The notes: generated by a model not told the origin, from the sequence alone. A DNA stretch of 56,288 nucleotides from a bacterium (GCA_021780355.1 JAJXYX010000043.1:1-56288); one strand, 5' to 3'; shown: positions 12,992 to 45,039, counted from the first letter of the stretch. A program made the numbers and translations.

Positions 12992-13111
12992 TCTTTAAAA
13001 AGTCTTAATAATTACGCTTTGTAATACCTTCTCTACGAATGAGTTGCGATTAAAATAATTGTTGCATTTTAAATGAAAATATGGTACAATTGAAGTATAA
13101 AGAGAGGATGT

Positions 13112-13369
13112 ATGAGCAGAAATCAACCATCTCTTCTTGATGAAGAGACGCAAGAAGCAAGTAGTCTTTTAAAGACGGACGATCACCGTTTTCAGATGAA
13201 AGTGTACGAGACTGTGGAGCTTATCCAAGACGCTTGCCCTTTTCTCCAGACTGAATCGACGATCCGACGCCTTCTCGCCCAGTACGGCGAAGCTTATCTC
13301 TTTTTTAACCAAACAGGCGAGCTGTGCTTCTTGACAGATTTCGTCAAGCCTGTGAAAAAGACGAATTAA
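13112..13369 (+). CDS. Hypothetical protein
   Basis: 85 aa with GAGGA RBS and a promoter-like TTGCAT/TACAAT upstream. Confidence 0.65.
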   Translation: MSRNQPSLLDEETQEASSLLKTDDHRFQMKVYETVELIQDACPFLQTESTIRRLLAQYGEAYLFFNQTGELCFLTDFVKPVKKTN

Positions 13370-13383
13370 GAGGGTTTAGCTGA

Positions 13384-13432
13384 TTGGGACTTCGTCCCAA
13401 ACCCAACTAAAGGACTTTGTCCTTTAGAATCC
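13384..13432 (+). repeat. Double-hairpin repeat unit A
   Basis: TTGGGAC-TTC-GTCCCAA ACCCAA CTAAAGGAC-TTT-GTCCTTTAG AATCC plus a T-rich tail. Confidence 0.85.
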
Positions 13433-13450
13433 TATTTTTTTTGTATTAGG

Positions 13451-13494
13451 AAAAAGCCTTGATGGTTAATGCGTCAATCATCAGGGCTTTTTTT
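13451..13494. terminator. Bidirectional intrinsic terminator
   Basis: AAAAAGCCTTGATGG...TCATCAGGGCTTTTTTT. Confidence 0.7.
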
Positions 13495-13558
13495 ATTTGA
13501 TGAATTTTTGTTTATAAAGAAAACCCTTTTTGTATAGTGAAAGAAAAAGGGTGAATAG

Positions 13559-14485: not shown

Positions 14486-14547
14486 CCCTTGCGTTTTTGA
14501 CCTTCTTTAAGTAAGCTGCATGCCTTCAAAAAAATACCGAGGCATCT

Positions 14548-14979
14548 ATGCATGTTTTGTTACCATCCATCCTGTTGGCGTCTTCAAGGGGAGGTCAACT
14601 ATTAAACCTGAGCGGCGAAATCATTGATGAACTCGTGGATATGGATTTGCCAGACACAACTTGTTCCATAAGAGATATTCCGAACCTTCGATTGACTCGC
14701 TGCAAATTCTTTAAGGTGGAAAGCAAAGGAGAGCTTTTCTTGAATGAATGCCGAGTTGAGAAAGTCGTCGCAGTAAAAAAAGCTACTTTAATCAATCAGT
14801 GTGAGATCGGAGAGGTCATGACAGATGAGGATGGGGAAGTATGGATAGAAAAATGTAAAAACGTCAAAGCGGTAGCTACGGGCCGCGTCATACTTGATCA
14901 AGTTTTTCCCTCGATGAAATTGCATGTAAAAATATTGATTCGTACGGCTGATTTTTCGGTATATACCGAAGGAAGCTGA
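14548..14979 (+). CDS. Hypothetical protein; last codons and stop supplied by a MITE
   Basis: 143 aa with GAGG RBS; the terminal YTEGS-stop lies inside the palindromic element starting at 14962. Confidence 0.55.
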   Translation: MHVLLPSILLASSRGGQLLNLSGEIIDELVDMDLPDTTCSIRDIPNLRLTRCKFFKVESKGELFLNECRVEKVVAVKKATLINQCEIGEVMTDEDGEVWIEKCKNVKAVATGRVILDQVFPSMKLHVKILIRTADFSVYTEGS

Positions 14980-15130
14980 AGAATCGGCTTACAGGCGGGT
15001 TCAAAGCGCCAAAAATCGATCGTCATAAAGGGGGGTTGTATTGCCTCGATACTACCCCCCTTTATGACAATCGATTTTTGGTAGCTTTCAATTCCGCCTG
15101 TAAGCCGATTCTTCAGCTTTCTTCGGTATA
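14962..15130 (+). mobile_element. Palindromic MITE, copy 1
   Basis: 169 bp imperfect palindrome TATACCGAAGGAAGCTGAAGAATCGGCT...AGCCGATTCTTCAGCTTTCTTCGGTATA, bounded by TA. Confidence 0.85.
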
Positions 15131-15136
15131 AACATA

Positions 15137-15183
15137 GGATTCCAAAGATTGAGTCCTTTGGCGGGGTATGGGGCAGCGTCCCA
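15137..15183 (-). repeat. Double-hairpin repeat unit B (degenerate)
   Basis: GGATTCCAAAG...CCTTTGG CGGGGTATGGGGC-AGC-GTCCCA. Confidence 0.75.
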
Positions 15184-15253
15184 TCTCATTCTGAGTGCAT
15201 CTATAGATTTAAAAAATTCGAATGATGTATCATGGGTCCCCGTGAGAGGTTTT

Positions 15254-16030
15254 ATGGGTGGTCAGTTTGTCTTTTTAGGGACGGGGGCGTCGGCGGGGGT
15301 TCCTTTGATAGGGTGCCAGTGCGCTGTGTGCCAGTCTTCTTTGCCCTATAACAATCGTTTGCGCTCAGCAGGGTGGCTTCGGGTAGGAGAAAAGTCTTTT
15401 TTAATTGATGTGGGGCCCGATTTTCGACAGCAGGCGCTGAAGCATGGGATTGAGCGGGTCGATGGGCTGCTGTTGACTCATACGCATTTTGACCATATTG
15501 CGGGGATCGACGACTTGAGGATCTATTCTGTTAGGCAAGAAAGGGCTGTTCCTTGCTTGCTGTCTCAGGAGAGTTATGATGAGCTGGCTACGCGCTATCA
15601 TTATTTTTTTAAGAAAGGAAAGAATCTGACGGCCCAGTTTTCTTATCAGGTGATGAATGATGAGGCGGGCGTCTTGGGATTTGAGGGGCTTTCGGTGAAG
15701 TATTTTCATTATAAGCAAGGCGATATGAAAGTGACGGGCTATCGGATTGGCGATTTTGCGTATCTGACAGATATCCGGGATTATGGCGAAACGATTTTTT
15801 CTTTTTTACAAGGGGTGAATTGTTTGGTGCTGAGCGCGCTTCGAGAAGAGCCGTCCCATTTGCATTTATCGCTGGATGAAGCGGTCGCCTTTGCTAGGAA
15901 AGCGGGAGCTCGGAAAACGAGACTGACCCACCTTTCCCATTTTTTGGATCATGAAGAGATCAACCAAAAACTGCCTCCTGATGTACAGGCAGGATACGAT
16001 GGGTTGACGATGGAATTTGAGGTGCTGTAG
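15254..16030 (+). CDS. MBL-fold hydrolase, PhnP-like
   Basis: FLGTGASAGVP..GCQCAVC, THTHFDH, YLTD, THLSH and GYDG. ATG 15254 follows GAGG; the ORF-track start at 15149 lies in a repeat. Confidence 0.9.
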   Translation: MGGQFVFLGTGASAGVPLIGCQCAVCQSSLPYNNRLRSAGWLRVGEKSFLIDVGPDFRQQALKHGIERVDGLLLTHTHFDHIAGIDDLRIYSVRQERAVPCLLSQESYDELATRYHYFFKKGKNLTAQFSYQVMNDEAGVLGFEGLSVKYFHYKQGDMKVTGYRIGDFAYLTDIRDYGETIFSFLQGVNCLVLSALREEPSHLHLSLDEAVAFARKAGARKTRLTHLSHFLDHEEINQKLPPDVQAGYDGLTMEFEVL

Positions 16031-17340
16031 TGGAGCCGGGACAGGGAAGACTAGTCGATTTACAACCAGAGCAGAAAAAAACTTTATTGGTAGGCACCTA
16101 TAAACAAACGAGCGATAAAGAGCTTTGCGCGGAGCAATTGAGCGAGCTGGAAAGTTTATGCGCAACGTATGGGTTAGAGGTGATAGAGAAAATCATGTGC
16201 CCGATTAAGGCATATGATGCTTCGACCTTTGTAGGCAAAGGGAAGGTCCAAGAGATTGCGGATTTGGTTTTGGAAAAAGGGATTGACGTCGTCATCTTTG
16301 ACGATGAAATTTCTCCCCAGCAGCAGAGAAATTTGGAGAAAATCTTTGAAAAAATCACGGTGGATCGAACAGAGCTGATTTTAGGCGTATTTGCTCAAAG
16401 GGCCCATTCCCGCGAGGCGCGCATACAAGTTGAACTTGCGACTCTTCGCTACCAGATGCCGAGGCTGAGAAGGATGTGGACCCACTTAAGCCGCCAAAGA
16501 TCGGGAGGATCGAGCGGCGGCGGAGGCGGCTACGTCAGAGGAGAAGGGGAGAAGCAGATTGAGATCGACCGAAGGATCGTGAGGCGCCGCTTAGATCGTT
16601 TGGAAGTAGAGCTGAAAGCCGTCAAACAGGCGCGAGATACACAAAGGCAAGCGCGGAAGCGAAGTGGAATCGCAACGTTTGCTATCGTCGGGTATACGAA
16701 TGTTGGTAAATCGACTTTAATGCGCGCTTTAACGGACGCCGATGTGCTGGTAGAAGATAAACTCTTTGCCACGCTCGATACGACGACACGCAAATATGTC
16801 CTTCCAAACCGCCAAGAAATTTTACTGATCGATACGGTGGGATTTATTCGTAAAATTCCTCACCTTTTGGTAGCGGCTTTTAAAAGCACTCTTGAAGAAG
16901 CTGTCCAAGCAGATATTTTGCTCCACCTAGTTGATGTCAGCAGCTCTGCTGCAGAAACGCAAGCGGAATCAACTCTGGCCGTTGTTAAGGAGCTGGGCGC
17001 TGAAAATGTCCCGATGATCACAGTATTAAACAAAATCGATCAGTGTCAAAATCGCCTTATGGCAGAGCGCATGAGGATCAAGTATCCAAAAACGGTAGAA
17101 ATTTCTGCCTTGCAAAAGCTTGGATTTGATCATCTTCTCGAATCGATGATCAATGAAATTTCTAAATTAAGAAAGCATGTCAAATTAAGAATCCCGCAAA
17201 GCCATTACGCTTTAGTCAGCGAACTCATGCGAGAGGGGAAAGTAAGCTCATGCGAGTATGAAGACAACGACGTCGTGCTTGAAGTAGAAATCCCTCGCAT
17301 CCTCGAGAAAAAAGTAGCTCTTTTTGAGGTGCTTTCGTGA
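16030..17340 (+). CDS. hflX: GTPase HflX
   Basis: GYTNVGKST, DKLFATLD, DTVGFI, NKID and GEKQIEIDRR. Confidence 0.97.
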   Translation: MEPGQGRLVDLQPEQKKTLLVGTYKQTSDKELCAEQLSELESLCATYGLEVIEKIMCPIKAYDASTFVGKGKVQEIADLVLEKGIDVVIFDDEISPQQQRNLEKIFEKITVDRTELILGVFAQRAHSREARIQVELATLRYQMPRLRRMWTHLSRQRSGGSSGGGGGYVRGEGEKQIEIDRRIVRRRLDRLEVELKAVKQARDTQRQARKRSGIATFAIVGYTNVGKSTLMRALTDADVLVEDKLFATLDTTTRKYVLPNRQEILLIDTVGFIRKIPHLLVAAFKSTLEEAVQADILLHLVDVSSSAAETQAESTLAVVKELGAENVPMITVLNKIDQCQNRLMAERMRIKYPKTVEISALQKLGFDHLLESMINEISKLRKHVKLRIPQSHYALVSELMREGKVSSCEYEDNDVVLEVEIPRILEKKVALFEVLS

Positions 17341-18233
17341 CGCTTCCTCCCTGTCGAGCTTCTTTAGATGTGCTGGACGACGAACTCACTTCGACGTTAT
17401 TTGCAGATTATTACTATTCTACCTATGCAGCCTCGAGCGCATCTACTTTATTTCGGTTCCATGAAGAGCCTTTCCCAATAGATGGAGATCCTTCCTTATC
17501 TCTCCCAGAGCTTCCCTCGTTAAAAGAACCCAAATTATCCGCCCGGATTTTTTCCAAAATCAAGTCTCTTCCAGCTCAAGACCGTCCTCGAGAGCGTTTA
17601 GCGCAGGTGGGTCCTGAAGCCCTTTCCACCATCGAGCTCCTCGCTATTTTACTAGGCAATGGGACTAAAAACTGCTCTGTTTTACAGCTAGCCGCTCAAC
17701 TCATGTCCCATTTTGGCACTCTTCACGCCCTTTCCGAGGCGAGCGTGCAAGAGCTCTCTTCTCTCAAAGGCATCGGCTTTGCCAAAGCCGTGCAGCTTAA
17801 AGCCGCCTTCAGCCTTCATGCAAGACTCCCCATCGGCCCCATCGATAAAATCGTGTTCGATAAAGCCAGCAAAATCTACGATCTCATCGGCTCTGAGCTA
17901 AAAAAAGAAAAAGTTGAAGTGCTTATGGTCATTCTTCTTGATGCCAGAAAGCGCTTTATCCATCGAGAAATCGCCGCAAAAGGCATTTTAAATCAGATTT
18001 TAATCCACCCGCGCGAAATCTTTCATTTAGCTATCAAGCATCGCGCTCACAGCATCGTCATCGCCCACAACCACCCCTCAGGAGATGTAGTCCCTTCCCA
18101 GCAAGATCTCCACATGACGCAAATTCTAAGAAAATCAGGCGAAATTTTAGGCATCAAACTGATAGATCATCTGATTGTAGCAGGAGAAGAGTACATTTCT
18201 CTCGCTGAGAAAAATCTTCTTCATGATGTTTAG
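17337..18233 (+). CDS. radC: RadC-family JAB/MPN protein with N-terminal extension
   Basis: DRPRERL, ELLAILL, HhH KGIGFAKA, HPREIF, HNHPSG and DHLIV. Confidence 0.93.
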   Translation: MTLPPCRASLDVLDDELTSTLFADYYYSTYAASSASTLFRFHEEPFPIDGDPSLSLPELPSLKEPKLSARIFSKIKSLPAQDRPRERLAQVGPEALSTIELLAILLGNGTKNCSVLQLAAQLMSHFGTLHALSEASVQELSSLKGIGFAKAVQLKAAFSLHARLPIGPIDKIVFDKASKIYDLIGSELKKEKVEVLMVILLDARKRFIHREIAAKGILNQILIHPREIFHLAIKHRAHSIVIAHNHPSGDVVPSQQDLHMTQILRKSGEILGIKLIDHLIVAGEEYISLAEKNLLHDV

Positions 18234-18234
18234 T

Positions 18235-18367
18235 TGGGGCTCCGCCCCAAACCCCGCTAAAAGGCTATCGCCCTTTAGAATCCCTTTTGTTTTTTTTTAT
18301 TTTCAAAAAAATCAAAAAGGATTCTAAAGGGCGATAGCCCTTTAGCGGGGTTTGGGGCGGAGCCCCA
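18235..18367. repeat. Inverted pair of double-hairpin units C (18235-18283) and D (18319-18367)
   Basis: 48/49 identical inverted copies separated by a T/A tract, between convergent radC and pdhB. Confidence 0.92.
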
Positions 18368-18385
18368 TCCTGAGGAATTCACAAA

Positions 18386-19372
18386 TTATCGAACAGGGAG
18401 AAGTTCTTGTAGGGCGGCGAGGATTCTTTCTTTGTTGGGAAGCGTTTCTTTTTCGAGGATTTTGGAGTATGGCATGGGAGTTTCTCGTTGGCAGACGCGG
18501 ACGAGGGGGGCGTCGAGATCATCGAAGCAGTGTTCGATGATTTGAAAGCCCACTTCGGCGGAGATGCCGGCGAAGATGTGACCTTCTTCGACGATGGCGC
18601 AGCGGTGCGTTTTGCGAACCGAGGCGGCAATGGTTGCGATGTCGAGGGGTTTGATGGTCCTGAGGTCGATGATCTCTACTTGGACGCCTTGCTTGGCGAG
18701 CTCGTCTGCGGCTTCGCGGCAGAACTTGAGCATGCGCGAGTAGGAAATGAGGGTGATGTGCTTGCCTTCGCGGATGACTTTGGCTTTGCCGATGGGGACG
18801 AGGTACTCTTCCGTGGGGATCTCCATCTTGTCGCCGTAGTCGAGCTCATTTTCTAAGAAGATGACGGGGTTGTTGGAACGGATGGAGGCTTTCAGAAGAC
18901 CTTTCGCATCGTAGGCGTTGCTTGGGGCTATGACGATGAAACCGGGGAGGTGGCCGTAAATGGCCTCTACACAGTGGGAGTGCTGGCAAGAGACTTGAGC
19001 GGCAGCTCCATTTGGGCCTCGGAAGACGATAGGGACTTTAAAACGACCGTTGGACATGTAGTAGGCTTTGCAGGCGTTCGAGATGAGCTGATCCGCGGCG
19101 ACGAAGGAAAAGTTCCAGCTCATGAACTCTACAATCGGGCGCAGACCTGTTTGAGCAGCTCCGATGGCGATGCCGGCAAAACCGTTTTCGGCAATCGGCG
19201 TGTCGATGACGCGCTCGGGACCCCATTTGTCCAGCATGCCTTTGGTGACTTTGTAGGCGCCATTATATTCCGCTACTTCTTCGCCAAGGATGAACACGGT
19301 AGAATCGCGGGTCATCTCCTCATCGATCGCTTGCCTGAGGGCTTCTCGAATTTCAACGATTTGCGTTCCCAT
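18386..19372 (-). CDS. pdhB: Pyruvate dehydrogenase E1 beta
   Basis: GEEVAEYNGAYKVT, DTPIAE, PIVFRGPNG and DLRTIKPLD; start placed at MGTQIV. Confidence 0.95.
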   Translation of the reverse strand: MGTQIVEIREALRQAIDEEMTRDSTVFILGEEVAEYNGAYKVTKGMLDKWGPERVIDTPIAENGFAGIAIGAAQTGLRPIVEFMSWNFSFVAADQLISNACKAYYMSNGRFKVPIVFRGPNGAAAQVSCQHSHCVEAIYGHLPGFIVIAPSNAYDAKGLLKASIRSNNPVIFLENELDYGDKMEIPTEEYLVPIGKAKVIREGKHITLISYSRMLKFCREAADELAKQGVQVEIIDLRTIKPLDIATIAASVRKTHRCAIVEEGHIFAGISAEVGFQIIEHCFDDLDAPLVRVCQRETPMPYSKILEKETLPNKERILAALQELLPVR

Positions 19373-20402
19373 TTCCTTCCTCTGGAGCAAATACTCCCTC
19401 TTCTAATGTCATTGGGTTAGGCCAAGGACTTTCTTCTGCAAATTTCATCGCGGCAATCACGATCTCTTTTTGTTGGGTATCTAGTTCTTTGAAAGTAGAT
19501 TCATTGAGCATGCCATGCTGGGTGAGCGCTTCTTTCATCAAAAGGATTGGGTCGTTCTCCATGGTTTTGTGCAGCTCTTCTTTTGAGCGATAGAGTGCGG
19601 GATCTGAAATAGAGTGCCCGCGGAATCGTTGGGTGATCGCTTCAATGAGTACGGGTCGAGAGGTGCTGAGCACTTCATGGTAAGCCTCTTTGAATCCTGC
19701 ATAGCAATTAAAAAAATCCATGCCGTTGAGAGTATAGGATTTGATGCCATAACTGCTTGCATAGTGCTTTGCGATCGGCTGGACGGCGACGGCTCTTTGC
19801 ACGGAAGTTCCCATGCCCCATTGATTGTTTTCAATGACGTAAAGACAAGGCAGGTTCCATAGGGCGGCCATATTGAGTGATTCGTGCACAGCCCCTTGCA
19901 CGACAGCCCCATCTCCTAGAAAACAAAAAGAGGCCCACCCTTTCTTTTTCAGATACTTGATGCTGAATGCGGCGCCAGTCGCAATGGGCACGTGTCCTCC
20001 GACAATGGCGAGCCCGCCGAGCAGGTGATCGGCATAGATATGCATCGATCCCCCTTTTCCTCCTGCATTCCCTGTCGCTTTGCCATAAAGCTCTGCCATC
20101 ATCTCATTCGGCGTCGCGTGGAGTAAAAGAGCTAAAGCATGGCAGCGGTAAGTCGTTGTAAACCAGTTGTCGGAGCCCGCTGCAGCAACGCAACCGACCT
20201 GAATGGCCTCTTGCCCCATGTAAGAATGATAAAATCCTCCTACCTTGCCTTGCTGATAGGCGGCCTCGCCTCGGATTTCAAAATTCCTGATGAGGAGCAT
20301 TTGCTCTAAGAGCTTTAAAAGTTTTTCCTTCCCCAACTCTTCAATGACAGCGTCTCGGTTGGAAGGGAAAAAATGGTAAGGGGTGTTTGTCTCGTCTTTC
20401 AT
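19353..20402 (-). CDS. pdhA: Pyruvate dehydrogenase E1 alpha
   Basis: GFYHSYMGQEA, GKGGSMH, GDGA..QG..HE..N (TPP motif) and RFRGHS. Confidence 0.96.
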   Translation of the reverse strand: MKDETNTPYHFFPSNRDAVIEELGKEKLLKLLEQMLLIRNFEIRGEAAYQQGKVGGFYHSYMGQEAIQVGCVAAAGSDNWFTTTYRCHALALLLHATPNEMMAELYGKATGNAGGKGGSMHIYADHLLGGLAIVGGHVPIATGAAFSIKYLKKKGWASFCFLGDGAVVQGAVHESLNMAALWNLPCLYVIENNQWGMGTSVQRAVAVQPIAKHYASSYGIKSYTLNGMDFFNCYAGFKEAYHEVLSTSRPVLIEAITQRFRGHSISDPALYRSKEELHKTMENDPILLMKEALTQHGMLNESTFKELDTQQKEIVIAAMKFAEESPWPNPMTLEEGVFAPEEGNGNANR

Positions 20403-20464
20403 GTCTTTGCGTTCTTAGTCTAAACCGGCGTATAAACAGTTAAGTAATAATTTTGCAAGAGATC

Positions 20465-20617
20465 TTACCCCATGCCCGGCATGCCAGAGCCGTGGTTCGG
20501 AACCACGTGGGGATTGTTGGTGACCGGGACTGTTCTCAAATCGTCGTCTTCATCATAAAACTGAAAACAACCAGTTAAGGTTAAGAGGGGGAGGAGGAAG
20601 AAAACACATTTTTTCAT
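20465..20617 (-). CDS. Small lipoprotein (50 aa), absent from the ORF track
   Basis: MKKCVFFLLPLLTLTGC-FQFYDEDDDLRTVPVTNNPHVVPNHGSGMPGMG: basic start, hydrophobic core, LTGC lipobox and GAGG RBS. Confidence 0.75.
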   Translation of the reverse strand: MKKCVFFLLPLLTLTGCFQFYDEDDDLRTVPVTNNPHVVPNHGSGMPGMG

Positions 20618-20782
20618 GATACAGCCTCGGCTTATAAAATTACTCTTCTCAGGATACCCAAATGGGGAGAAAAAAGAAATGGGTTTATTCCAGTGAGGAA
20701 TAGGCGGGCTGGGAGGAGATAAAATGAGAATTGCTTTTAATCGAAAAATTCTGTTTCATAGGGGGTTTTACATTGGGTGACT

Positions 20783-21481
20783 ATGGCTCCGCGACCTATC
20801 TATTATGACACCGAAACTACAGGTGTAAGACCGGCTAAAGATCGAATTATCGAGATTGCAGCTTACGATGTGGAAAGAGATCGAACGTTTTGTTCTTTTG
20901 TTTATCCTGAAGGGCCGATTCCTCCGGAATCTACCGCTATTTCCGGCATCACAGATGAAATGGTGAAGGGAGCTCCCTTATTTAGCGAGGTGGGGCCTGC
21001 CTTTGCGGCCTTTTGCGAGGGAGATGTGGTTTTAGTAGCTCATAATAACGATCAGTTTGATAAGCTTTTTTTGGAGCATGAGTACAATCGGTTTGGCCTT
21101 TCTATGCCAAGCTGGCTCTATTTTGATACGTTGAAATGGTCGCGCAAGTATCGGCCCGATTTGCCGCGCCATTCTTTGCAATTTTTGAGAGAATTATTTG
21201 GGATCGAGGCCAACCAGGCTCATAGGGCTTTAGATGACGTCTATGTGCTTCATCAAGTGTCTACGAGGCTGATCGACGATTTGAGTTGGGATGAAATTTT
21301 ACGTTTGATGACCCAATCTTCTGAGATCACTAGAATGCCGTTTGGCAAATATGCGGGAAAACCTCTTTCCGAGGTTCCTAAAGATTACGTTAGCTGGCTT
21401 GCGAAAAACGGCGCGTTAGATAAATCGGAAAACGCAGCGCTTCGGGAAAATTTTAAAAAATTAGGTCTTTTGGGGGAATAA
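20783..21481 (+). CDS. DEDDh 3'-5' exonuclease (DnaQ-like) with C-terminal DUF3820-like motif
   Basis: DTETTG, AHN..FD, HRALDD; tail MPFGKYAGKPLSEVPKDYVSWL. Confidence 0.9.
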   Translation: MAPRPIYYDTETTGVRPAKDRIIEIAAYDVERDRTFCSFVYPEGPIPPESTAISGITDEMVKGAPLFSEVGPAFAAFCEGDVVLVAHNNDQFDKLFLEHEYNRFGLSMPSWLYFDTLKWSRKYRPDLPRHSLQFLRELFGIEANQAHRALDDVYVLHQVSTRLIDDLSWDEILRLMTQSSEITRMPFGKYAGKPLSEVPKDYVSWLAKNGALDKSENAALRENFKKLGLLGE

Positions 21482-22312
21482 ATGAACGTCAAAATTGCGA
21501 TCATTGGCTGTGGATACATTGGCATGAAGGCAGCGGCCCATTGGAGCGAAATGGGGCATCATGTGACGGCGACGACGCGCCATCCGGAACGATTGCCCGA
21601 TTTGGCAAAAGTGGCCCAAAAAACTTTGATCCTCAAGGGAGATGACGAGGAGGGGCTCGCCTCTCTTATCGCTGCGAATGATGTTCTAGTGATCACAATT
21701 GCAGCCGATAGCATCGATCAATATGAAAATGCCTATTTGCATACCTCCCAGCAGATCCGCGCTCTCGCTTTAGAAATGAACGAACCTCGCCGTTTAATCT
21801 ATACGAGCAGCACTTCGGTATACGGAGATCATCACGGGCTTTGGGTAGATGAAACAGCCTCTTTAACGGCTCCTTCCGAGCAAGGGAAAATTCTCATCCA
21901 ATCGGAAAAAACCTATCTTTCCTTATCAGAATGCCATTGGCATGTATGCATTTTGCGTCTTGCCGAGATTTACGGTCCCGATAGAGAGATCTCTCGCCGG
22001 GCAAAACATATGGAAGGGCATAAATTGCCAGGTTCGGGCGATCAGTATACGAACATGGTGCATAAAGAAGATGTCGCGGCAGCCTTGGATTACGCGCTTC
22101 GGTATCGTTTAGAGGGAATTTATAATGTTGTTGACGATGAGCATCCGACTCGCAAAGAATTATACGACCGCATTGCTCATCAGCGCCACTGGCCTCTTCT
22201 TGAATGGGATCCTACTCTAACAAGCATGCATGGAGGCAACAAAAGAGTATCGAACCATAAAATTAAATCAGAAGGTTTTGTTTTTTCCTTTCCACATAGA
22301 ATTTTAGATTAA
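21482..22312 (+). CDS. NAD-dependent epimerase/dehydratase (atypical SDR)
   Basis: GCGYIG, YTSSTSVYG, LRLAEIYGP and KRVSN.K. Confidence 0.88.
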   Translation: MNVKIAIIGCGYIGMKAAAHWSEMGHHVTATTRHPERLPDLAKVAQKTLILKGDDEEGLASLIAANDVLVITIAADSIDQYENAYLHTSQQIRALALEMNEPRRLIYTSSTSVYGDHHGLWVDETASLTAPSEQGKILIQSEKTYLSLSECHWHVCILRLAEIYGPDREISRRAKHMEGHKLPGSGDQYTNMVHKEDVAAALDYALRYRLEGIYNVVDDEHPTRKELYDRIAHQRHWPLLEWDPTLTSMHGGNKRVSNHKIKSEGFVFSFPHRILD

Positions 22313-22335
22313 AAACTGTCGTTGAAATTCTCCAA

Positions 22336-22502
22336 TATACCGTTCGTAACTCAAGAATCGGCTATTGGATGAGATTGAAAGCTGCCAAAAATTGATCGCC
22401 GCAAAGTGGGCTAGTATGAGGCAATACAACCCACTTTGCGGCGATCGATTTTTGGCGCTTTGAACTCGTCCAATAGCCGATTCTTGAGTCACGAACGGTA
22501 TA
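22336..22502 (-). mobile_element. Palindromic MITE, copy 2
   Basis: 167 bp TATACCGTTCGTAACTCAAGAATCGGCT...AGCCGATTCTTGAGTCACGAACGGTATA. It has the same internal loop and bulges as copy 1, in the opposite orientation. Confidence 0.88.
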
Positions 22503-22525
22503 CAAAGAAATTCAACGACCGCCTC

Positions 22526-22864
22526 TTATTCGGAAAGAGCTTCTTCTTGTAGATTAGGAGATGCAGGCGAGATATTTTGAGGTAGAAACCAAGTGGTTTT
22601 TAGCGCCAGCGTTAACTCTTCGATTTTTTTGCTTGTTTTGGCGACAAATTTATTGCCGGTGAATAGTTGGATTGGCTTGCCTTTAATCAAGATTCGTTTG
22701 TCGTTATGATCTGCGATCCATTTATGAATTTTTGCCACAGTCGCTTCAAGCGCTTCTGGGGTGACCAGTTCGTCTTGTCTTTTTAATACTTCCTCTAGTT
22801 TTTTTCTGGCTTTTTTAATGGTTTGACTTTCAGGCGCGCACTTTTTTTTCCCTTCGTCGCTCAT
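22526..22864 (-). CDS. Hypothetical protein
   Basis: 112 aa, Lys/Glu-rich, with a GAGGAG RBS. Confidence 0.7.
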   Translation of the reverse strand: MSDEGKKKCAPESQTIKKARKKLEEVLKRQDELVTPEALEATVAKIHKWIADHNDKRILIKGKPIQLFTGNKFVAKTSKKIEELTLALKTTWFLPQNISPASPNLQEEALSE

Positions 22865-22956
22865 TTTAACTCCTCTGGTGGACCTGCGAGAATGCTAAAA
22901 GAATTTCATTTAAATAGCTAGAAAAAACTATGCTGAAAAGATATGCGGAGGATAGT

Positions 22957-23679
22957 ATGAATGCGATAGAAATAAAAAAAGAATTAGGTTTAAGAGCTGC
23001 TCAATTGATTCAATCCGGGATGATCGTCGGTCTCGGCACTGGTTCTACTGCTGAGTGTTTTATTCATAGCCTGCTTGAGCGGGTCCAAAAAGAAAAACTA
23101 ACCATTCAAGCCGTTGCCAGTTCAGAGCGTTCGGCAGAATTAGCGCGAGCAGGCGGCGTTTCCGTCTTAGATCTCAATGAGGCCTCTCATGTCGACATCA
23201 CCGTTGATGGAGCCGATGAAATCGATCCCGAAAAGCGTCTGATTAAAGGAGCTGGCGGAGCTCTGCTTCGAGAAAAAATCCTAGCCTCCTCCAGTCGCAG
23301 CATGCTCGTCATCGCCGATGAAACCAAGTTAGTTCCTCACCTCGGAAAAACAAAACTCCCCCTAGAAATTCTCCCCTACGGCGCCGCCGCCACCCGCCGC
23401 CATATCGAAGCCCTCGGACACAAAGCTTCCTGGAGATTAAGCCCCTTCAGCCCCCTCCGCCCCACCTTTCATCTACCCCAGCAATCAGAAAATCTCTTCC
23501 TCACAGACAACAATAATCTCATCCTCGATCTCACTTTCAGTCACCCTCTCCAAAACCCCGAAGAGCTTCATCACGAACTCACCCAAATCCCCGGAGTACT
23601 CGAAACCGGCTTCTTTTTCCACCTAGCCAAAACAATCCTCATCGGCCGTCTTAATGGCAAAGTCGATCAAATTTCTTAG
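22957..23679 (+). CDS. rpiA: Ribose-5-phosphate isomerase A
   Basis: GLGTGST, DGADE and KGAGGALLREK; start after GGAGG. Confidence 0.96.
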   Translation: MNAIEIKKELGLRAAQLIQSGMIVGLGTGSTAECFIHSLLERVQKEKLTIQAVASSERSAELARAGGVSVLDLNEASHVDITVDGADEIDPEKRLIKGAGGALLREKILASSSRSMLVIADETKLVPHLGKTKLPLEILPYGAAATRRHIEALGHKASWRLSPFSPLRPTFHLPQQSENLFLTDNNNLILDLTFSHPLQNPEELHHELTQIPGVLETGFFFHLAKTILIGRLNGKVDQIS

Positions 23680-23687
23680 CGCATAGA

Positions 23688-23835
23688 TGGGGCTTCGCCC
23701 CAAACCCCACCAAAGGACTATCGTCCTTTGGAAACCTATTTACTTTACGAATCATCAATCGCTGCGATTGATGATTCAAAAACAAATAGGAGTCCAGAGG
23801 ACGTAGTCCTTTGGCGGAGTGTGGGGCGGAGCCCC
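23688..23835. repeat. Inverted pair of double-hairpin units E (23688-23736) and F (23789-23835) around a central 29 bp palindrome
   Basis: Same unit as A-D. The centre is GAATCATCAATCGC-T-GCGATTGATGATTC (23749-23777). Lies between convergent rpiA and pepF. Confidence 0.9.
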
Positions 23836-23843
23836 GCTATCGA

Positions 23844-25643
23844 TTAGCTCAGACATTCTTCGAGTTCGTCGATGAGTTTTTGGAAATAATTGAGAGCTGA
23901 TTCGACGGGTTTGGGGCTTGTCATGTCGACGCCTGCGATCTGTAGGAGATCGAGGGGGTAGCGGCTGCCTCCGGCGCTGAGGAATTGGAGGTATTTTGAT
24001 CGAGCTTCTTGGGATTGGGTGGCTTGATTGAAGAGCTCGAGGGCTGCGCTGAGGCCGGTTGCGTATTGATAAACGTAGAAGTCGTAGTAGAAGTGGGGGA
24101 TTCGGGCCCATTCGAAGGCGAGTTCGGGGTCGGCGGCGAAATGGGGGCCGTAGTATTCTTGGTTGAGTTGGAGATAAGTTTTGTTGAGAAGAGAGGGGGT
24201 GAGGGGGACGCCTTCTTCGGCCCAGCGGTGGAGTTGCCATTCGAACTCCGCGAAGAGCGTTTGACGGAAGATGGTGCCTCGAATGCCTTCGATTTGGTAG
24301 TTGAGGAGAACGGCTTTTTCTTGCTTGGTTTTTGCGTGGGAGAGGAGATGGCGCAAGAGAAGCTGCTCGTTGAAAGTGGAGGCGACTTCTGCTACGAAGA
24401 TCGGGTATTGGGAGTTGATGTAGGATTGGTGGGTGCGGCTGTAGTAGCTGTGCATGCTGTGGCCAGCTTCGTGGGCGAGAGTGAGGACGTCATTGAGCGT
24501 GCCGTGGTAGTTCATGAGGATGTAGGGCATGCTATCGTAGCATCCGCTGGAATAGGCCCCGGAGCGCTTGCGGGCGTTTTCGTAGACATCGACCCAGCGA
24601 TCTGTGGTGAGGCCTTTTTGTAAGATCTCTTGGTATTCGGAGCCTAAGAGAGAGACGGATTCGATGACAGCATGGCAGGCGTCGGGATATGCCATGTTCA
24701 TGTTGGTTTCTGAGACGAGAGGAACGTAGAGATCGTAGGCGTGAATTTGATCGAGCTTGAGGATTTTTTTTCGTAGGTCAAGATACTTGTGCATGAGAGG
24801 GAGGCCTGTTTTCACAGTTTGGATGAGCTGTGAATAGACCTTGGTGTCGATTTTATGGCTGAAGAGGGCGGAATCTAGACAGCTGGGAAAATTTCTGGCC
24901 CTTGCTGTGAAGAGATGGCTTTCGACTAGACCTTGAAGAAGCTCGCAGATTGTGTTGGCGTGATGTTCATAGCTTTGATGCAGATGGATGAAAGCGGTTT
25001 TGCGAAATTTTCGGTCGGGAGATCTGACGTACATGAGATAAGAGCCGTTGGAGAGGGGGTGTTCTTTTCCTTTCTCGTCGAGGGCGGGTTGGAAGGTGAG
25101 GTCCGCATTATTCAGAGCCCCGAACGCTTTATAGAAAGTGTCTAGAGCTTTTGAGCTAAGGGCCATAATTTTTTCCTGCTCAGGTGGAAGCGTGTGGGCT
25201 TTTCTCCGGTTTACTTTTTCTAAATAGAATTGAAATGGTTTGAGAGAGGGGGTTTGGAGCAATGTTTGATATTGCTCCTCGCTGAGGGATAGCAGCTCTG
25301 GCTCGATCCAGGAGCTTTCCAACTGAAAATGGTGCATGAGCTGCGAGATCAGGCCAAAATAATGTTTATGTACGTCATTGCCTACGTCCTCATCTAATTT
25401 AAGATGGGCGTAGGTATGTAGTTTCGATAGCTCTCTGTCTAGGTTAAATAATTTATTGAGAAGCTCTGTGAGCTGGGAGGGGTTTGCGAGATGGTTTTTG
25501 TAGGCGGCAAGCTCTGGCCAGCGAAGCTCTTCTTCTTTATTTTGAATAGCTTGCAGATCTTTTTCCCACTCGGAAAACGAGGGGTATAAAGCCGAGACAT
25601 TCCACTGGTCTTGCTCGGGGATTTCGGTTCTGGATTGGGTCAT
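23844..25643 (-). CDS. pepF: Oligoendopeptidase F (M3B)
   Basis: KRSGAYSSG, TLAHEAGHSMH, FVAEVAS and WARIPHFY. Confidence 0.96.
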   Translation of the reverse strand: MTQSRTEIPEQDQWNVSALYPSFSEWEKDLQAIQNKEEELRWPELAAYKNHLANPSQLTELLNKLFNLDRELSKLHTYAHLKLDEDVGNDVHKHYFGLISQLMHHFQLESSWIEPELLSLSEEQYQTLLQTPSLKPFQFYLEKVNRRKAHTLPPEQEKIMALSSKALDTFYKAFGALNNADLTFQPALDEKGKEHPLSNGSYLMYVRSPDRKFRKTAFIHLHQSYEHHANTICELLQGLVESHLFTARARNFPSCLDSALFSHKIDTKVYSQLIQTVKTGLPLMHKYLDLRKKILKLDQIHAYDLYVPLVSETNMNMAYPDACHAVIESVSLLGSEYQEILQKGLTTDRWVDVYENARKRSGAYSSGCYDSMPYILMNYHGTLNDVLTLAHEAGHSMHSYYSRTHQSYINSQYPIFVAEVASTFNEQLLLRHLLSHAKTKQEKAVLLNYQIEGIRGTIFRQTLFAEFEWQLHRWAEEGVPLTPSLLNKTYLQLNQEYYGPHFAADPELAFEWARIPHFYYDFYVYQYATGLSAALELFNQATQSQEARSKYLQFLSAGGSRYPLDLLQIAGVDMTSPKPVESALNYFQKLIDELEECLS

Positions 25644-25677
25644 AGGAGCTTCCTTTTTTTAGAAAAAACGGGCGCGA

Positions 25678-25739
25678 TTAGCAATCCCGCATTCGATTTG
25701 CTAAATTTTGTTGCAAAAAAAACCATGTTCTAGTATATT
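25678..25739 (+). promoter_or_regulatory. Degenerate CIRCE (HrcA operator) and groESL promoter
   Basis: TTAGCAATC-N9-ATTTGCTAA (25678-25704), then TTGCAA-N17-TATATT (25711-25739). Confidence 0.75.
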
Positions 25740-25828
25740 CCTTTATAGATTTTAGTCGATAACTCTCACAATATAATCGCTGGCCTTAGGGCTGGCCTAA
25801 AAAAAAACAACACAAGGAGAAGCACTTT

Positions 25829-26143
25829 ATGGCTCAACAAGCTGAAAAGAAAATGACACTGAAGCCTCTTGGCAACCGAGTTCTTGCTCAAAGATTAGAG
25901 CAGCAAGAGACGATGAAGGGGGGGATCATTCTTCCGGATAGCGCTAAGAAAAAGCAAGAGACGGCTCGTGTGGTAGCTGTGGGTTCTGGCAAAAAATTAG
26001 ACGATGGTCAAATTGTGCCAGTGCCTGTAGCAGTCGGCGATGTGATCCTTATGGATAAATACGCAGGACAGGAAGTCTCGATCGATGACGAAGAGTTTGT
26101 GATCGTGAAGTCTGATGACATCGTAGCAATTGTTGAAGAATAA
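25829..26143 (+). CDS. groES: Co-chaperonin GroES
   Basis: LKPLGNRVL, GGIILPD and VVAVGSG. Confidence 0.98.
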   Translation: MAQQAEKKMTLKPLGNRVLAQRLEQQETMKGGIILPDSAKKKQETARVVAVGSGKKLDDGQIVPVPVAVGDVILMDKYAGQEVSIDDEEFVIVKSDDIVAIVEE

Positions 26144-26152
26144 TTTTGTTAA

Positions 26153-27793
<1,641 letters not shown>

Positions 27794-27816
27794 TCCCTCT
27801 CTTTCTTAAGTGCGAT

Positions 27817-27853
27817 AAAAACCCCTTGGAGGCAACTTCAAGGGGTTTTTTTT
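27817..27853 (+). terminator. groESL intrinsic terminator
   Basis: AAAAACCCCTTGGAG-GCAA-CTTCAAGGGGTTTTTTTT. Confidence 0.9.
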
Positions 27854-27874
27854 ATGTAAAATCCCAAGTCAAAA

Positions 27875-27928
27875 GGGATTCCAAAGGGCGTCAGCCCTTT
27901 GGTAGGATCTTAAGGACGAAGTCCTTAA
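27875..27928 (-). repeat. Double-hairpin repeat unit G (variant)
   Basis: GGGATT CCAAAGGGC-GTCA-GCCCTTTGG TAGGATC TTAAGGAC-GAA-GTCCTTAA. Confidence 0.8.
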
Positions 27929-27964
27929 AAACTTTCAGCTGGAAACTCTTTGTAAGCTAATTCT

Positions 27965-30100
27965 TTAGTCCTGAGAAGCTGACAGCCCCATATCTTCAAA
28001 AAATGCATCCTGCGTTGGTTCGCGGCCTAAGAAATCTTGCAAGAGATCATTAGGATCGGCGCTTCCGCCTTTGCCTAGGACTTTATCGACAAACTGTTTG
28101 CCGATGCCAGCGTCTAGGAGGCCTACTTGTTTTACTTGGTTAAATAGATCGAGGGCGAATACTTTTGACCACATATATCCATAGTACTTGGCTCCATAGC
28201 CAATTAAATGGCCAAAGGATGCCTGCATATGCGCGTTGGGATTATATGCAATTGTCGAGCAGTATTTTTCGAATAACTCTTTTTGGATGGCTTGCGTATC
28301 TTTTTCGGCGCCTGGTTTGAAGTATTCAAGCGAAATCAAGCTTAAGTACGCTTGGCGTCTTAAAAACGCTCCGCTGTCGAATTTTTTTAGGGAAATCATT
28401 GTGTCGATCAGGCTATCGGAAAGAGGTTCTCCAGTTAGATAATGGGAGCTTACCTGTTTGAGCATGTCTTTGTCCCACATCCATTCTTCGAACATTTGCG
28501 AGGGCATTTCTACGAAATCGTACTTGACGGCAAAACCTGAACATGAGGCAAGCTTTGTTGTTCCTAGAACGTAGTGCATGGCGTGGCCGAATTCATGAAA
28601 AAAGGTTTCTACATCCGAGTGCTTGAAAAGAGCGGGTTTGTCAGGGGTGGCTTTGGGGAAATTGGCAATTACCATGCAAGCTGCAGGGGCGATCACTCGC
28701 TTGCCATTTTGGTCGCTATAAAGAGATGGCACCAATTCGGCGCAGCATGCATGCGAATATTTATTGGGTCGGGGATAAAGATCTAAAATGACATAACCGC
28801 GCTGTTTGCCAGTTCCTCTATCTTTAATCGAGATGCATATGACCTCTTTATCCCAAAGACCTTGGACGGGAACTCTTTCAAAATCGACGTTTAAAAACTT
28901 TTGATAGATAGCAAAGATGCCTTCTACGGTTTTATCGACTGGGAAATACTCTGCCACTTCGCGCGCATCCATGGAGAAATGTTTTTTCTTGTACGATTCT
29001 TTAATGTACTCTAGATCCCATCCAAAAAATTGACCGCGCTCATTTAATTCGACGCCTTCGGGCAAATCATTCATCAAGTCTCGATGTTCTAGCAGTTCTT
29101 TTTGACGCGCTTTGTCGATTAGCTGATAAATAAAAGCGTAGGCGCGCTCTGGTGTTTCGGCCATATTGGGATCGATATCTAGATGAGCGTAGCTTGGGAA
29201 ATGAAGAAGCTGTGCGAGCGCGTCTCGTTTGCTGATGATGGTTTTCAGCCGCTCCATGTTTTCAGGATAGGCTCTATTTTGAAATTCTGTTAATAAGAGC
29301 TTGCGGGTTTGCCCATTTTTACAGTGGCCCATCACTTCAAAATACGTTGGGTAATCAACGCCTACTTTGAGTTTGCCGTCATCGATTTTTTCTAAACGCT
29401 GCAAAAGATCATCGGAAACGCCAGCTAAATCCTCTGGGGCCACGGCGATGAATCGATTGTCTTTGGCAATGGCCGCTTGAAACTCTGTTCCCAGCTGCGA
29501 AAGTTCTTTTTTAATTTGTTTGACCTGATCGAATTGATTGCTCGGCAAATCAAACCCATTTCGTTTAAAATCCTTCATACTCTCACTGAGAAAATAGGCT
29601 TCTTCGCTCGAGAGTTTTTCTCCATTGGCGTGAGCCAAGCTTCCCTCTCTTATCATTCCCTCAAATGCGGCGTAAAGAGCTGGATTCATAAAGGCGTCGA
29701 CGGCGAAATCTTGCATTGTAAGAATCGCTTCGTGTGCAGCGTTTCGCATGGCTTCATCAGGATGGAGCATTTCGAGAACATGAATCGGATTGCAGGCAAT
29801 GGAAAATTTACGGCTCAGTTCATCGAAAGCTTTGATCGTATTGTCAAAGTTGCGCTTCTCATGAGATAGTGAAAGGAGCTCTTTAAAGTCTTTTTGTGCA
29901 ATCGCAAGACTGGCTTTACACCTTTCGGCGATCTCATTAGGACTTTTGGGAAAAAGGTTGATGACTTGTTGAATGGAACTGACATTGTTTTGCAGCATTT
30001 CTTCATACCTTTCTGTATTCAAAGCGTAGGAATTTTTTAACAAGCCCACACAGCCCATTACAGATAACCCCACAATCGTTCCTATTTTGATGCCTCGCAT
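27965..30100 (-). CDS. M3A metallopeptidase (thimet oligopeptidase-like) with N-terminal signal-like segment
   Basis: DLYPRPNKYSHA, FFHEFGHAMH, DFVEMPSQ and YYGYMWS. Confidence 0.93.
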   Translation of the reverse strand: MRGIKIGTIVGLSVMGCVGLLKNSYALNTERYEEMLQNNVSSIQQVINLFPKSPNEIAERCKASLAIAQKDFKELLSLSHEKRNFDNTIKAFDELSRKFSIACNPIHVLEMLHPDEAMRNAAHEAILTMQDFAVDAFMNPALYAAFEGMIREGSLAHANGEKLSSEEAYFLSESMKDFKRNGFDLPSNQFDQVKQIKKELSQLGTEFQAAIAKDNRFIAVAPEDLAGVSDDLLQRLEKIDDGKLKVGVDYPTYFEVMGHCKNGQTRKLLLTEFQNRAYPENMERLKTIISKRDALAQLLHFPSYAHLDIDPNMAETPERAYAFIYQLIDKARQKELLEHRDLMNDLPEGVELNERGQFFGWDLEYIKESYKKKHFSMDAREVAEYFPVDKTVEGIFAIYQKFLNVDFERVPVQGLWDKEVICISIKDRGTGKQRGYVILDLYPRPNKYSHACCAELVPSLYSDQNGKRVIAPAACMVIANFPKATPDKPALFKHSDVETFFHEFGHAMHYVLGTTKLASCSGFAVKYDFVEMPSQMFEEWMWDKDMLKQVSSHYLTGEPLSDSLIDTMISLKKFDSGAFLRRQAYLSLISLEYFKPGAEKDTQAIQKELFEKYCSTIAYNPNAHMQASFGHLIGYGAKYYGYMWSKVFALDLFNQVKQVGLLDAGIGKQFVDKVLGKGGSADPNDLLQDFLGREPTQDAFFEDMGLSASQD

Positions 30101-36554: not shown

Positions 36555-36690
36555 TTGTTATTTCATAACTTATTGATTGTGAATTGTTTTGATATTAGAT
36601 CGGGGTGAGCAGTCTTCAGGGCTGTGCAACGTTAAACAAGAAAATTTTTTTTCTCAACCCTTTATCAGGTTTTTTTATACAAAACAAAAA

Positions 36691-36740
36691 GGGTTTTAAG
36701 GGACGTAGTCCCTTAATGGGATTTGGGGCGAAGCCCCAAT
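36691..36740 (-). repeat. Double-hairpin repeat unit H
   Basis: GGGTT TTAAGGGAC-GTA-GTCCCTTAA TGGGAT TTGGGGC-GAA-GCCCCAA; abuts the lpxD stop. Confidence 0.85.
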
Positions 36741-44913: not shown

Positions 44914-44976
44914 TCTTTTGTTTGTTCTGAACAGTAGGCAGGTCTCGCAGTTCATTCAAAAAAATAAAAAACCATA

Positions 44977-45025
44977 GGTTTCCAAAGGACGAAGTCCTTT
45001 GGTAGGGTGCGGGACGAAGTCCTGC
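44977..45025 (-). repeat. Double-hairpin repeat unit I
   Basis: GGTTT CCAAAGGAC-GAA-GTCCTTTGG TAGGGT GCGGGAC-GAA-GTCCTGC. Confidence 0.85.
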
Positions 45026-45039
45026 TCTTTTTAGCTATA

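Follow-up and report, generated by a model that had tools for sequence, protein, structure and literature searches.

Polar G/C skew of kilobase length on the tip side of a double-hairpin repeat dispersed through a bacterial genome

A short double-hairpin repeat, several copies of which lie in a 56,288-nucleotide stretch of bacterial DNA (GCA_021780355.1 JAJXYX010000043.1:1-56288; the whole of this stretch is called the window below), is accompanied by a strong, oriented imbalance between G and C in the DNA that adjoins it. A sequence-only reading of the window had described this around an inverted pair of repeat units between rpiA and pepF and beside several other units, and had proposed that the polarity is set by the unit, with an excess of G on the 3' side of the strand that carries its GNA loops. 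In the genome from which the window comes (G000; 1.96 Mb in 105 contigs, 96.7% complete) this polarity holds at about 232 of the 245 units that have enough flanking sequence to be measured. Presence of the footprint at a locus depends on presence of the unit there, and neither gene strand nor replication direction has an influence on it.

The strand with the TTC or TCC loop is called the model strand here, and its complement, with the GAA or GGA loop, the GNA-loop strand. For the 245 units, tip-side skew was taken on the model strand at 50-550 nt. It was below zero in 94.7% of them and below -0.1 in 84.5% (median -0.255), the background of 500-nt windows taken genome-wide having a median of +0.018 and a 5th percentile of -0.222. 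Expressed for the outward strand, the mean per unit was 0.248 (bootstrap 95% confidence interval 0.229-0.265), and skew was nearly flat across the score of the nhmmer search by which the units were found (-0.22 to -0.27). When the oriented units were aggregated, the model strand was C-rich outside the tip, i.e. the GNA-loop strand was G-rich. The aggregate model-strand skew was -0.25 to -0.28 beside the tip and had fallen to about zero by 1.5 kb. An exponential fit gave a length constant of 909+-61 nt, the effect fading over ~1-1.5 kb, in keeping with the relaxation with distance that the earlier reading had described; an absence of decay, which it had named as an argument against itself, was not seen. 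GC content rose from 0.45 to 0.50 beside the tips. At the 85 isolated units (no other unit within 3.5 kb) the effect was strictly one-sided, the inner side showing a skew of +0.10 in the first 250 nt and 0.00-0.02 thereafter; inverted pairs were skewed outward on both sides, again as had been noted. Strong skew was seen in 424 of the 300-nt windows of the genome; 255 of them are no farther than 1.5 kb from a tip in the correct orientation, and many of the remainder are at contig ends. The regions within 1 kb and 1.5 kb of a tip make up 12% and 18% of the bases of G000, respectively.

Skew was present whichever way the adjoining gene was oriented (-0.27 for co-oriented and -0.23 for anti-oriented genes). 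Gene ends without a unit within 3 kb (n = 222) had a coding-strand skew of -0.019 at the 3' side and +0.006 at the 5' side, vs -0.285 at gene 3' ends beside a co-oriented unit (n = 57) and +0.227 at gene 5' ends facing a unit tip (n = 44). The opposite signs at 5' and 3' ends indicate that the skew tracks the unit and not the gene. Two patterns that the sequence-only reading had itself listed as contrary evidence, an equal enrichment of C at the 3' ends of genes without a unit and a skew following gene direction, were thus not observed. Replication gave a comparable picture: the shift was -0.29 for the 104 units whose model strand is leading and -0.26 for the 100 in which it is lagging. The contig background attributable to the replichore is about +-0.1, and the unit effect adds to it regardless of fork direction. 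A second family of nested palindromes (164 merged loci) had an outward skew of 0.008-0.016 vs 0.256-0.051 for the units. Members of this second family are ~165-180 nt long, with window copies at 14954-15133, 22336-22510 and 44750-44912; they often adjoin a double-hairpin unit (as at units B and I of Table 1), and contig depth at them is up to ~45x the neighbouring single-copy level.

Orthologous loci with and without a unit were compared between G000 and a relative, G002, with 1-kb flanks; 241 unit flanks of G000 were queried, and a usable orthologous flank was available for 57. In the 25 cases with a unit in G000 and none in G002, skew was -0.199 vs -0.037, lower in G000 every time (25/25, p = 6e-8). 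At the 32 sites with a unit in both genomes it was -0.200 in G000 and -0.141 in G002. The reverse test, on 44 G002 units without a detectable unit in G000 (some of the G000 sites being at contig ends), was weaker (-0.085 in G002 vs -0.037 in G000) because the effect in G002 is itself weaker. Individual loci of the window behave in the same manner. The flanks of units B-F are skewed in G000 and G001 and near zero in the unit-free G003 and G004, except that of unit C in G004 (-0.26). For the flank of unit F, in pepF, the outward-strand skew is +0.38 in G000 and +0.30 in G001, with +0.08 in G002, +0.08 in G003 and +0.12 in G004. For unit B the model-strand value is -0.26 in both G000 and G001, -0.03 in G003 and +0.11 in G004. 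At unit E, whose flank lies in rpiA, the loci of G002, G003 and G004 lack both the unit and a comparable skew; when the aligned parts only are taken, the difference is modest (-0.04 to -0.10 in G000 vs -0.05 to +0.23).

The unit itself is an object of a familiar kind. A profile built from nine window copies retrieved 258 copies in G000 (nhmmer, E<=0.01), each ~57 nt long and composed of two hairpins. On the model strand, hairpin 1 has a 5-bp GC stem and the TTC or TCC loop; it is followed by a C-rich linker, by hairpin 2 with a 9-bp stem, by GGAATCC and by a T-run. Pairing is kept despite two-sided changes at 7 of the 15 predicted pairs, with compensatory changes in both hairpins, and a perfect 5-bp stem closed by a GGA (74) or GAA (69) loop is found in 143 of 244 units. 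Neighbouring units are convergent with tips outward, in 62/63 cases when they are <300 nt apart and in 70/75 when they are <1 kb apart, and such a pair makes up a single long hairpin, a near-perfect palindrome with a predicted fold of -58 to -72 kcal/mol. In another genome, G023, a foldback element of ~470-590 nt, with arms of ~200 nt, has these tips at its ends. Because of the convergent pairs, the long-hairpin folds and this foldback element, the unit is read from its sequence as the outer tip of a small palindromic repeat of mobile type, present solo or as a convergent pair. A third, central hairpin (stem ~10-14 bp) follows the T-run in many pairs and in some solo units, with a conserved ATCTTCCG...CGGAAGAT form in several G000 copies; the full element would therefore consist of tip, tail, centre hairpin, tail and tip. 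Palindromy at close pairs often continues a few nt past the end of the model, and no direct repeat of the kind left by target-site duplication was seen at ~38 junctions of the 56 close pairs, inspected by eye. Units are mostly extragenic: 19 of 235 best matches fell within open reading frames (ORFs) and the remainder between them, the gene calls being greedy longest ORFs and not the output of a gene finder. No Rfam family matches the unit. A terminator scan of 13000-28500 flagged a hairpin with T-run at 3 of the 7 window units, the gap of 5-7 nt between stem and T-run being atypical. Strongly skewed windows without a visible unit occur at contig ends (C7:1-450, C9:8701-9600, C6:10051-10350); the assembly probably broke at units there, and the true copy number is therefore probably higher than 258.

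The skew is strongest at synonymous sites. Coding-strand skew at codon position 3 was -0.61 / +0.49 vs -0.07 for the background, and positions 1 and 2 shifted less. Amino-acid use moves as well, in co-oriented genes (P x1.23, H x1.22, G x0.88, V x0.91) and in anti-oriented ones (V x1.21, G x1.14, P x0.85, Q x0.79), and these shifts run as mutation pressure predicts. At 4-fold sites <=250 nt from the tip, the model-strand frequency of C in co-oriented genes was 0.59 against a background of 0.30, and in anti-oriented genes 0.415 against 0.21, while G was reduced to ~0.4 of its background. For 2-fold sites, T>C and G>A on the model strand showed odds shifts of 3-fold and 1.5-fold, respectively, with agreement between the two gene orientations. 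Changes from G002 (no unit) to G000 (unit) at the 25 loci were counted on the model strand, unpolarised, between species that are ~26% diverged and with control loci near G002 units: T>C 1201 vs 452, A>C 636 vs 250, G>C 443 vs 191, G>T 323 vs 253 and G>A 613 vs 557. On the TTC-loop strand the largest net change is thus T>C (A>G when read on the GNA-loop strand), and A>C and G>C come next. The sequence-only reading had attributed the skew to cytosine deamination of an exposed strand. That attribution is not supported in this form: the raw counts of the deamination-type change, C>T on the GNA-loop strand, are the near-symmetric 613 and 557, and since GC content rises and there is a net change to C from T, A and G, simple cytosine deamination does not explain the footprint.

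A covariance model detected the unit in 15 of 61 relatives, with a patchy distribution: G000, G001 and G002 have at least 90 copies each, and G003 and G004, of the same genus, have none. For genomes other than G000 the data cover the regions around units, and related genomes are not independent samples. Mean tip-side skew was negative in all 13 of the 13 unit-bearing genomes examined, which belong to six families (G051 -0.41; G028 -0.28; G000 -0.25; G055 -0.23, n = 3; G026 -0.19, n = 4; G042 -0.15; G002 -0.14; G038 -0.13; G023 -0.10; G006 -0.07; G039 -0.03; G048 -0.02; G031 -0.004). Units in which the 5-bp stem is intact and the loop is of GNA type had a somewhat stronger skew than others of their genome (stratified difference -0.044, permutation p = 0.0008), and the units of the unskewed G039 have AAA loops, a GNA loop being present in just 2 of 52. 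Of the earlier interpretation, the parts on the GNA hairpin, its polarity and the length of DNA affected are supported; deamination as the cause is not.

All mechanisms that we considered share one polarity, 5'->3' on the GNA-loop strand from the tip. The one we favour, to which we would give a probability of roughly one half, is that nicking or priming anchored at the tip leads into resynthesis over a short range and with low fidelity, which biases substitutions to G on the GNA-loop strand. A recurrent DNA transaction would begin at the tip and proceed 5'->3' along this strand. Most probably the tip hairpin would be nicked or primed on one strand, after which a short stretch would be copied anew with low fidelity or a strand would be displaced, and a non-proofreading repair polymerase would misinsert on the new strand (G.T, G.A, G.G). 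Substitutions would then be biased to G on the GNA-loop strand and to C on the other, with a length constant of ~0.9 kb, whatever gene adjoins. Both the causal role of DNA synthesis from the tip and the enzyme performing it are what we infer from the pattern of changes. Resynthesis is favoured because all three gains on the GNA-loop strand end at G, GC content rises, and the direction of fork and gene is ignored. The commonest polymerase misinsertion is G opposite T, and the dominant A>G change on the GNA-loop strand is the one that it would produce, which is a further reason. Finally, the length scale matches that of mutagenesis by resection and gap filling near breaks, as far as this is set out in the excerpted text of PMC3607216. 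A Y-family polymerase, moreover, is encoded by G000.

Several results weigh against resynthesis. A spectrum directed wholly towards G on one strand was not matched to any characterised polymerase, and it could equally reflect misinsertion of dCTP on the other strand. An imbalance already exists in the control region, taken 2.5-3.5 kb upstream (T>C 1.31, A>C 1.25, G>C 0.79, G>A 0.70, G>T 0.62); relative to this control, what stands out on the model strand is a gain of C plus a loss of G in all directions, and the corresponding loss of C from the GNA-loop strand suits strand exposure. Divergence between G000 and G001 at 4-fold sites was 0.42 at 0-400 nt vs 0.45 beyond 1.5 kb (0.42, 0.49, 0.50 and 0.45 by bin, from 298-624 sites per bin and near saturation); as there is no clear rise near units, the bias could act at fixation or repair and not by added mutations. 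The units of G039, G048 and G031 are almost without skew. The skew in G051 is the same whether or not a unit has a GNA loop (-0.41 both), and across the 13 genomes the GNA fraction was not significantly correlated with skew (Spearman -0.37, p = 0.21). The searches revealed no nickase, primase or transposase linked to the units, no systematic transposase scan having been made. G000 has no match to the Y1/RAYT family (PF01797), and no unit (E<=1) was present within the ~2-3 kb flanks examined of 10/10 Y1 genes in relatives. The Prim-Pol family PF09250 matched none of the 61 genomes, the RepB'-type family not having been searched.

The search for enzymes gave little that distinguishes one genome from another. 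PF01797 genes are present in 27 of the 61 relatives, unrelated to unit presence. With no Y1 match in G000 and no association of units with Y1 genes in relatives, identity with the repetitive extragenic palindrome (REP) system of RAYT transposases was rejected for G000. The T7-like RNA polymerase profile PF00940 had no match anywhere, controls included, and is therefore uninformative. The skewed genomes G000, G051 and G028 have a Y-family polymerase, and so does the unskewed G031; none was found in G039 (69% complete). MutS occurs in 5/5 genomes checked, and in these five genomes neither Y-family polymerase nor MutS presence separates the skewed from the unskewed. In G031 (63% complete) the MutS domain V match is in two adjoining pieces (C4:870385-870955), which may represent a frameshift or a broken gene. 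A tyrosine recombinase of Xer/integron-like type occurs in four copies (window 2175-3257, + strand; C103:9801-10874; C17:1797-2900; C65:14356-15447), the best NCBIfam E-value being 1e-21, below the cut-off.

On the exposure model that follows the sequence-only reading, the duplex would be opened at the unit, or a helicase or primase loaded there, as at a mini-origin or in the manner of a single-strand initiation (ssi) signal, leaving the GNA-loop strand single-stranded for ~1 kb and open to damage, chiefly cytosine deamination. The polarity fits 5'->3' movement on this strand, pairs act as a two-sided skew switch, and intact GNA hairpins are the more skewed; relative to the far-upstream control the GNA-loop strand loses C in all three directions and A>G rises, and the shifts at 2-fold sites, 3-fold for A>G and 1.5-fold for C>T when read on that strand, are both deamination-type transitions. 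GNA mini-hairpins are moreover found at the primase origins of G4/St-1/alpha3 and at RSF1010 ssiA in the excerpted text of PMC13037366. Even so, we judge exposure unlikely as the cause: GC content goes up and not down, the raw C>T count is symmetric, A>G and T>G lead the net changes on the GNA-loop strand although the second of them is no deamination product, fork direction has no influence, and the 61 genomes gave no Prim-Pol match. In the known ssi and N4 cases the hairpin is on the template and synthesis runs to the template 5' side, according to the same excerpts, which on a geometric reading would here be inward. Outward transcription from the unit, with the GNA-loop strand as the non-template strand of bubbles or R-loops, would offer a similar asymmetry of damage or repair, with a feedback if G-richness stabilises R-loops. 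Its geometry is as observed, decay could reflect stochastic termination, and kilobase-scale skew gradients starting at human promoters and CpG islands are reported in the portion of PMC2817419 consulted. It is improbable, since no sigma-70-like promoter was found at the units or pointing out of them (a scan of 13000-28500 gave 19 sites vs 17.5 expected), the opposite sense of the unit is terminator-like (hairpin 2, then T-run), the genes' own transcription yields a small background skew only, and gains through T>G and C>G would not be expected from non-template exposure.

A bias in repair or fixation is about equally improbable. Here a strand discontinuity at the tip would steer mismatch excision or conversion tracts of ~1 kb onto one strand, with a strand and GC bias. 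The lack of a clear rise in 4-fold divergence near units speaks for it, as do the rise in GC, which resembles GC-biased conversion, a length scale like that of mismatch-excision and conversion tracts, and MutS in all five genomes checked. However, GC-biased conversion by itself yields no strand skew, a heteroduplex or replication errors would be required together with a hypothetical nick, and the favoured G>C and A>C transversions would be unexplained. Selection for C-rich, G-poor nucleic acid upstream of hairpins, for example for Rho loading or free folding of the hairpin, would agree with the resemblance of the unit to an intrinsic terminator when it is read inward from the skewed flank, and with the C-rich, G-poor 3' part of the mRNA in co-oriented genes. 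It is very unlikely because the effect is equal in anti-oriented genes, where the C-rich strand is not the mRNA, and is strongest at synonymous sites, dragging amino-acid use along. In addition, an extent of 1-1.5 kb far exceeds any loading site, and the same unit type is unskewed in G039, G048 and G031. Least credible of all is an insertion preference, by which units would land or survive beside DNA that is already skewed: the bare association is the sole point for it, and it is contradicted by the unskewed orthologous flanks without units, with which the window loci agree. Gene ends without a nearby unit are unskewed too, and units A and G, recent- or variant-looking, lack skew.

Among known systems, REPs and bacterial interspersed mosaic elements (BIMEs), including the REPIN doublets of RAYT transposases, are similar in being short GC-rich palindromes, mostly intergenic, with hundreds of copies per genome; REPINs are, like the unit pairs, inverted doublets that fold into one long hairpin and are patchy among relatives. 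They differ in that those systems have a RAYT (Y1 HUH) transposase, whereas no cognate Y1 was found for the units, and in that a kilobase-scale polar flank skew is undescribed for REPs, as judged from the literature searched and from general knowledge. Unit pairs are also like miniature inverted-repeat transposable elements (MITEs), as terminal inverted repeats bounding a short non-coding element. Stable GNA-loop hairpins on one strand are shared with the ssi and primase origins (G4/St-1/alpha3, RSF1010 ssiA/ssiB) and with N4 promoters. RSF1010 has two ssi signals on opposite strands, as an inverted pair. Those sites are single, on a phage or plasmid and served by a dedicated enzyme; the units are 258 chromosomal copies. 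In the promoter of the N4 virion RNA polymerase, as given in the excerpts of PMC13037366, a stem of 5 bp is closed by a GGA or GAA loop, and hairpin 1 of the unit is, to that extent, of the same form; synthesis at ssi and N4 sites as described there would, at the units, run away from the skewed flank.

The flip from C-rich to G-rich at an inverted pair, with the G-rich strand pointing away from the centre, is like the skew switch of a replication origin. Origin skew, however, spans the replichore, whereas that of the units is local (~1.5 kb), decays, is one-sided at solo units, goes with a rise in GC and has an amplitude ~3x that of the replichore skew. With ~62 two-sided and at least 85 one-sided sites per genome and a local effect, identity of the units with the chromosomal origin was rejected; initiator boxes were not part of the search. 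Somatic hypermutation is a further case of strand-specific bias decaying over 1-2 kb, which depends on transcription and a dedicated deaminase. Promoter-proximal asymmetry in mammals, as presented in the portion of PMC2817419 consulted, is like the units in being a strand-specific bias from a defined site. These mammalian systems are transcription-dependent; the units have no promoter signal and a spectrum that is not dominated by deamination. In Escherichia coli, break-proximal mutagenesis acts within ~2 kb of a DNA end through resection and low-fidelity gap filling and is independent of replication and transcription direction, according to the excerpted text of PMC3607216; that case, so far as the excerpts describe it, concerns an induced break and reporter genes, whereas the units show an evolutionary footprint at hundreds of natural sites that is one-sided and strand-specific. 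No description of a kilobase polar skew beside dispersed bacterial repeats was found in the CC-licensed full texts of PubMed Central and in bioRxiv, which agrees with the earlier reading, to which no description in Chlamydiae was known. As an element the unit is unremarkable in kind, in contrast to its polar footprint.

Returning to tip-anchored resynthesis, we put forward more tentatively that the units are dispersed start sites for nicking or hairpin-directed priming with ~1 kb of low-fidelity synthesis, which would make a mobile element a polar local mutator that rewrites the adjoining gene. If this is true, a 57-nt mobile hairpin would be a determinant of bacterial evolution beyond replication, transcription and selection, shaping ~18% of G000 and changing the codon and amino-acid usage of adjoining genes, and for bacteria this would be the first process of the kind to be read from its genomic footprint. 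Skew tracts of this kind would distort inferences from codon usage, on horizontal transfer and in phylogeny. Through the footprint, the underlying transaction would also become accessible to experiment at GNA mini-hairpins, which are known elsewhere from the priming signals of phages and plasmids, and the comparison of related genomes with and without the effect could identify a trans-acting factor.

The units of the window and their skew tracts are listed in Table 1. The G and C counts made by hand in the sequence-only reading proved exact for nine of nine pairs. Between 13000 and 32999 the window was compared with contigs of four runs, three of which are probably the source of this assembly; differences were confined to the inside of repeats and the unique DNA was identical.

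Table 1. Repeat units and skew tracts in the window (positions counted from its first nucleotide)
Feature	Position	Strand	Description
Unit E	23686..23745	GNA-type loops on -, TTC loop on +	Double hairpin, tip facing left
E/F centre	23746..23779		T/A-rich tails and third, central hairpin
Unit F	23780..23838	+	Inverted partner of E, tip facing right, GGA loop on +; 75.2 bits
Left E/F skew tract	23000..23685	+	3' two-thirds of rpiA; coding strand C-rich and G-poor, raised GC
Right E/F skew tract	23839..25250	+	3' three-quarters of pepF; + strand G-rich, coding strand C-rich
Pair C/D	18233..18369		Units 18233-18292 and 18311-18369; fold -72 kcal/mol
Unit B	15127..15184	+	Tip facing right; G-rich + tract ~15185-16550 in + strand MBL-fold hydrolase gene
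Unit I	44968..45026	+	Tip facing right; G-rich + tract ~45027-46500
Unit H	36682..36740	+	Tip facing right; 79.7 bits; tract ~36741-37600 in lpxD
Unit A	13383..13442	-	Tip facing left; 81.7 bits; little or no skew
Variant unit G	27866..27926	+	Stem AGGAC/GTCCT; no tip-side skew (-0.015, +0.078)

Unit E is a covariance-model match of 80.7 bits with a DNA fold of -15.7 kcal/mol (z = -6.0) and belongs to repeat families D2/I14; the whole E/F stretch (23688-23836) folds as one hairpin of -58.4 kcal/mol (z = -13.4). The convergent genes on either side are rpiA at 22930-23679 (+ strand; RpiA equivalog, 253 bits) and pepF at 23844-25643 (- strand; PepF equivalog, 639 bits). Both are C-rich on the coding strand, the reverse of the usual coding-strand bias. 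In the left tract GC skew goes from 0.00 at 23000-23299 through -0.20 at 23150-23449 to -0.49 at 23300-23599, with a GC content of 0.51-0.54 and, on the + strand at 23461-23580, 47 C vs 9 G. In the right tract it is +0.29 to +0.45 over 23750-25249 (+0.45 at 23900-24199; 25 G vs 9 C on the + strand at 23941-24000) and relaxes past 25100 to 0.14-0.22, the contig background being ~+0.11. GC content in the E/F tracts is 0.54-0.56 vs 0.38-0.45 farther out.

Pair C/D is flanked by a tract with C-rich + strand at ~17300-18232, in radC, and by one with G-rich + strand at 18370-19250, in pdhB, the skew being -0.21 to -0.14 in the former and +0.31 to +0.11 in the latter. The tract of unit B has a skew of 0.12-0.32, with 28 G vs 7 C at 15241-15300, and its gene does run the other way relative to the unit, as had been remarked. 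That of unit I, also correctly described as skewed, has values of 0.34, 0.34, 0.23 and 0.19 and a GC content of 0.52-0.54. At unit H the skew is moderate (0.18, 0.13, 0.23), with a GC content of 0.51-0.56 vs 0.33-0.37 on the inner side. The 1-kb flank of unit A has a skew of +0.02 vs a contig background of +0.11; no unit was detected at the orthologous site in G001 (flank ~80% identical), G002 or G003, the G004 site lying outside the examined locus. For unit G the earlier remark that it has no obvious skew is borne out by the values in the table. Units A and G may be recent insertions at which skew accumulates later. The stem variant of unit G is of a type common in G051.

Some further features of the genome were recorded. 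A tmRNA gene at window 9350-9744 (- strand; RF00023, 139 bits) is the sole Rfam match in the window. There are three GroEL paralogues, the canonical one at window 26168-27793 (+ strand, 835 bits) and the others at C43:46930-48624 and C53:1977-3575. With the flanks of units masked, the background skew changes sign in C42 near 40 kb (-0.04..-0.07 to +0.07..+0.01) and in C19 near 20 kb (-0.10 to +0.12), and these two places are candidate origin or terminus regions.

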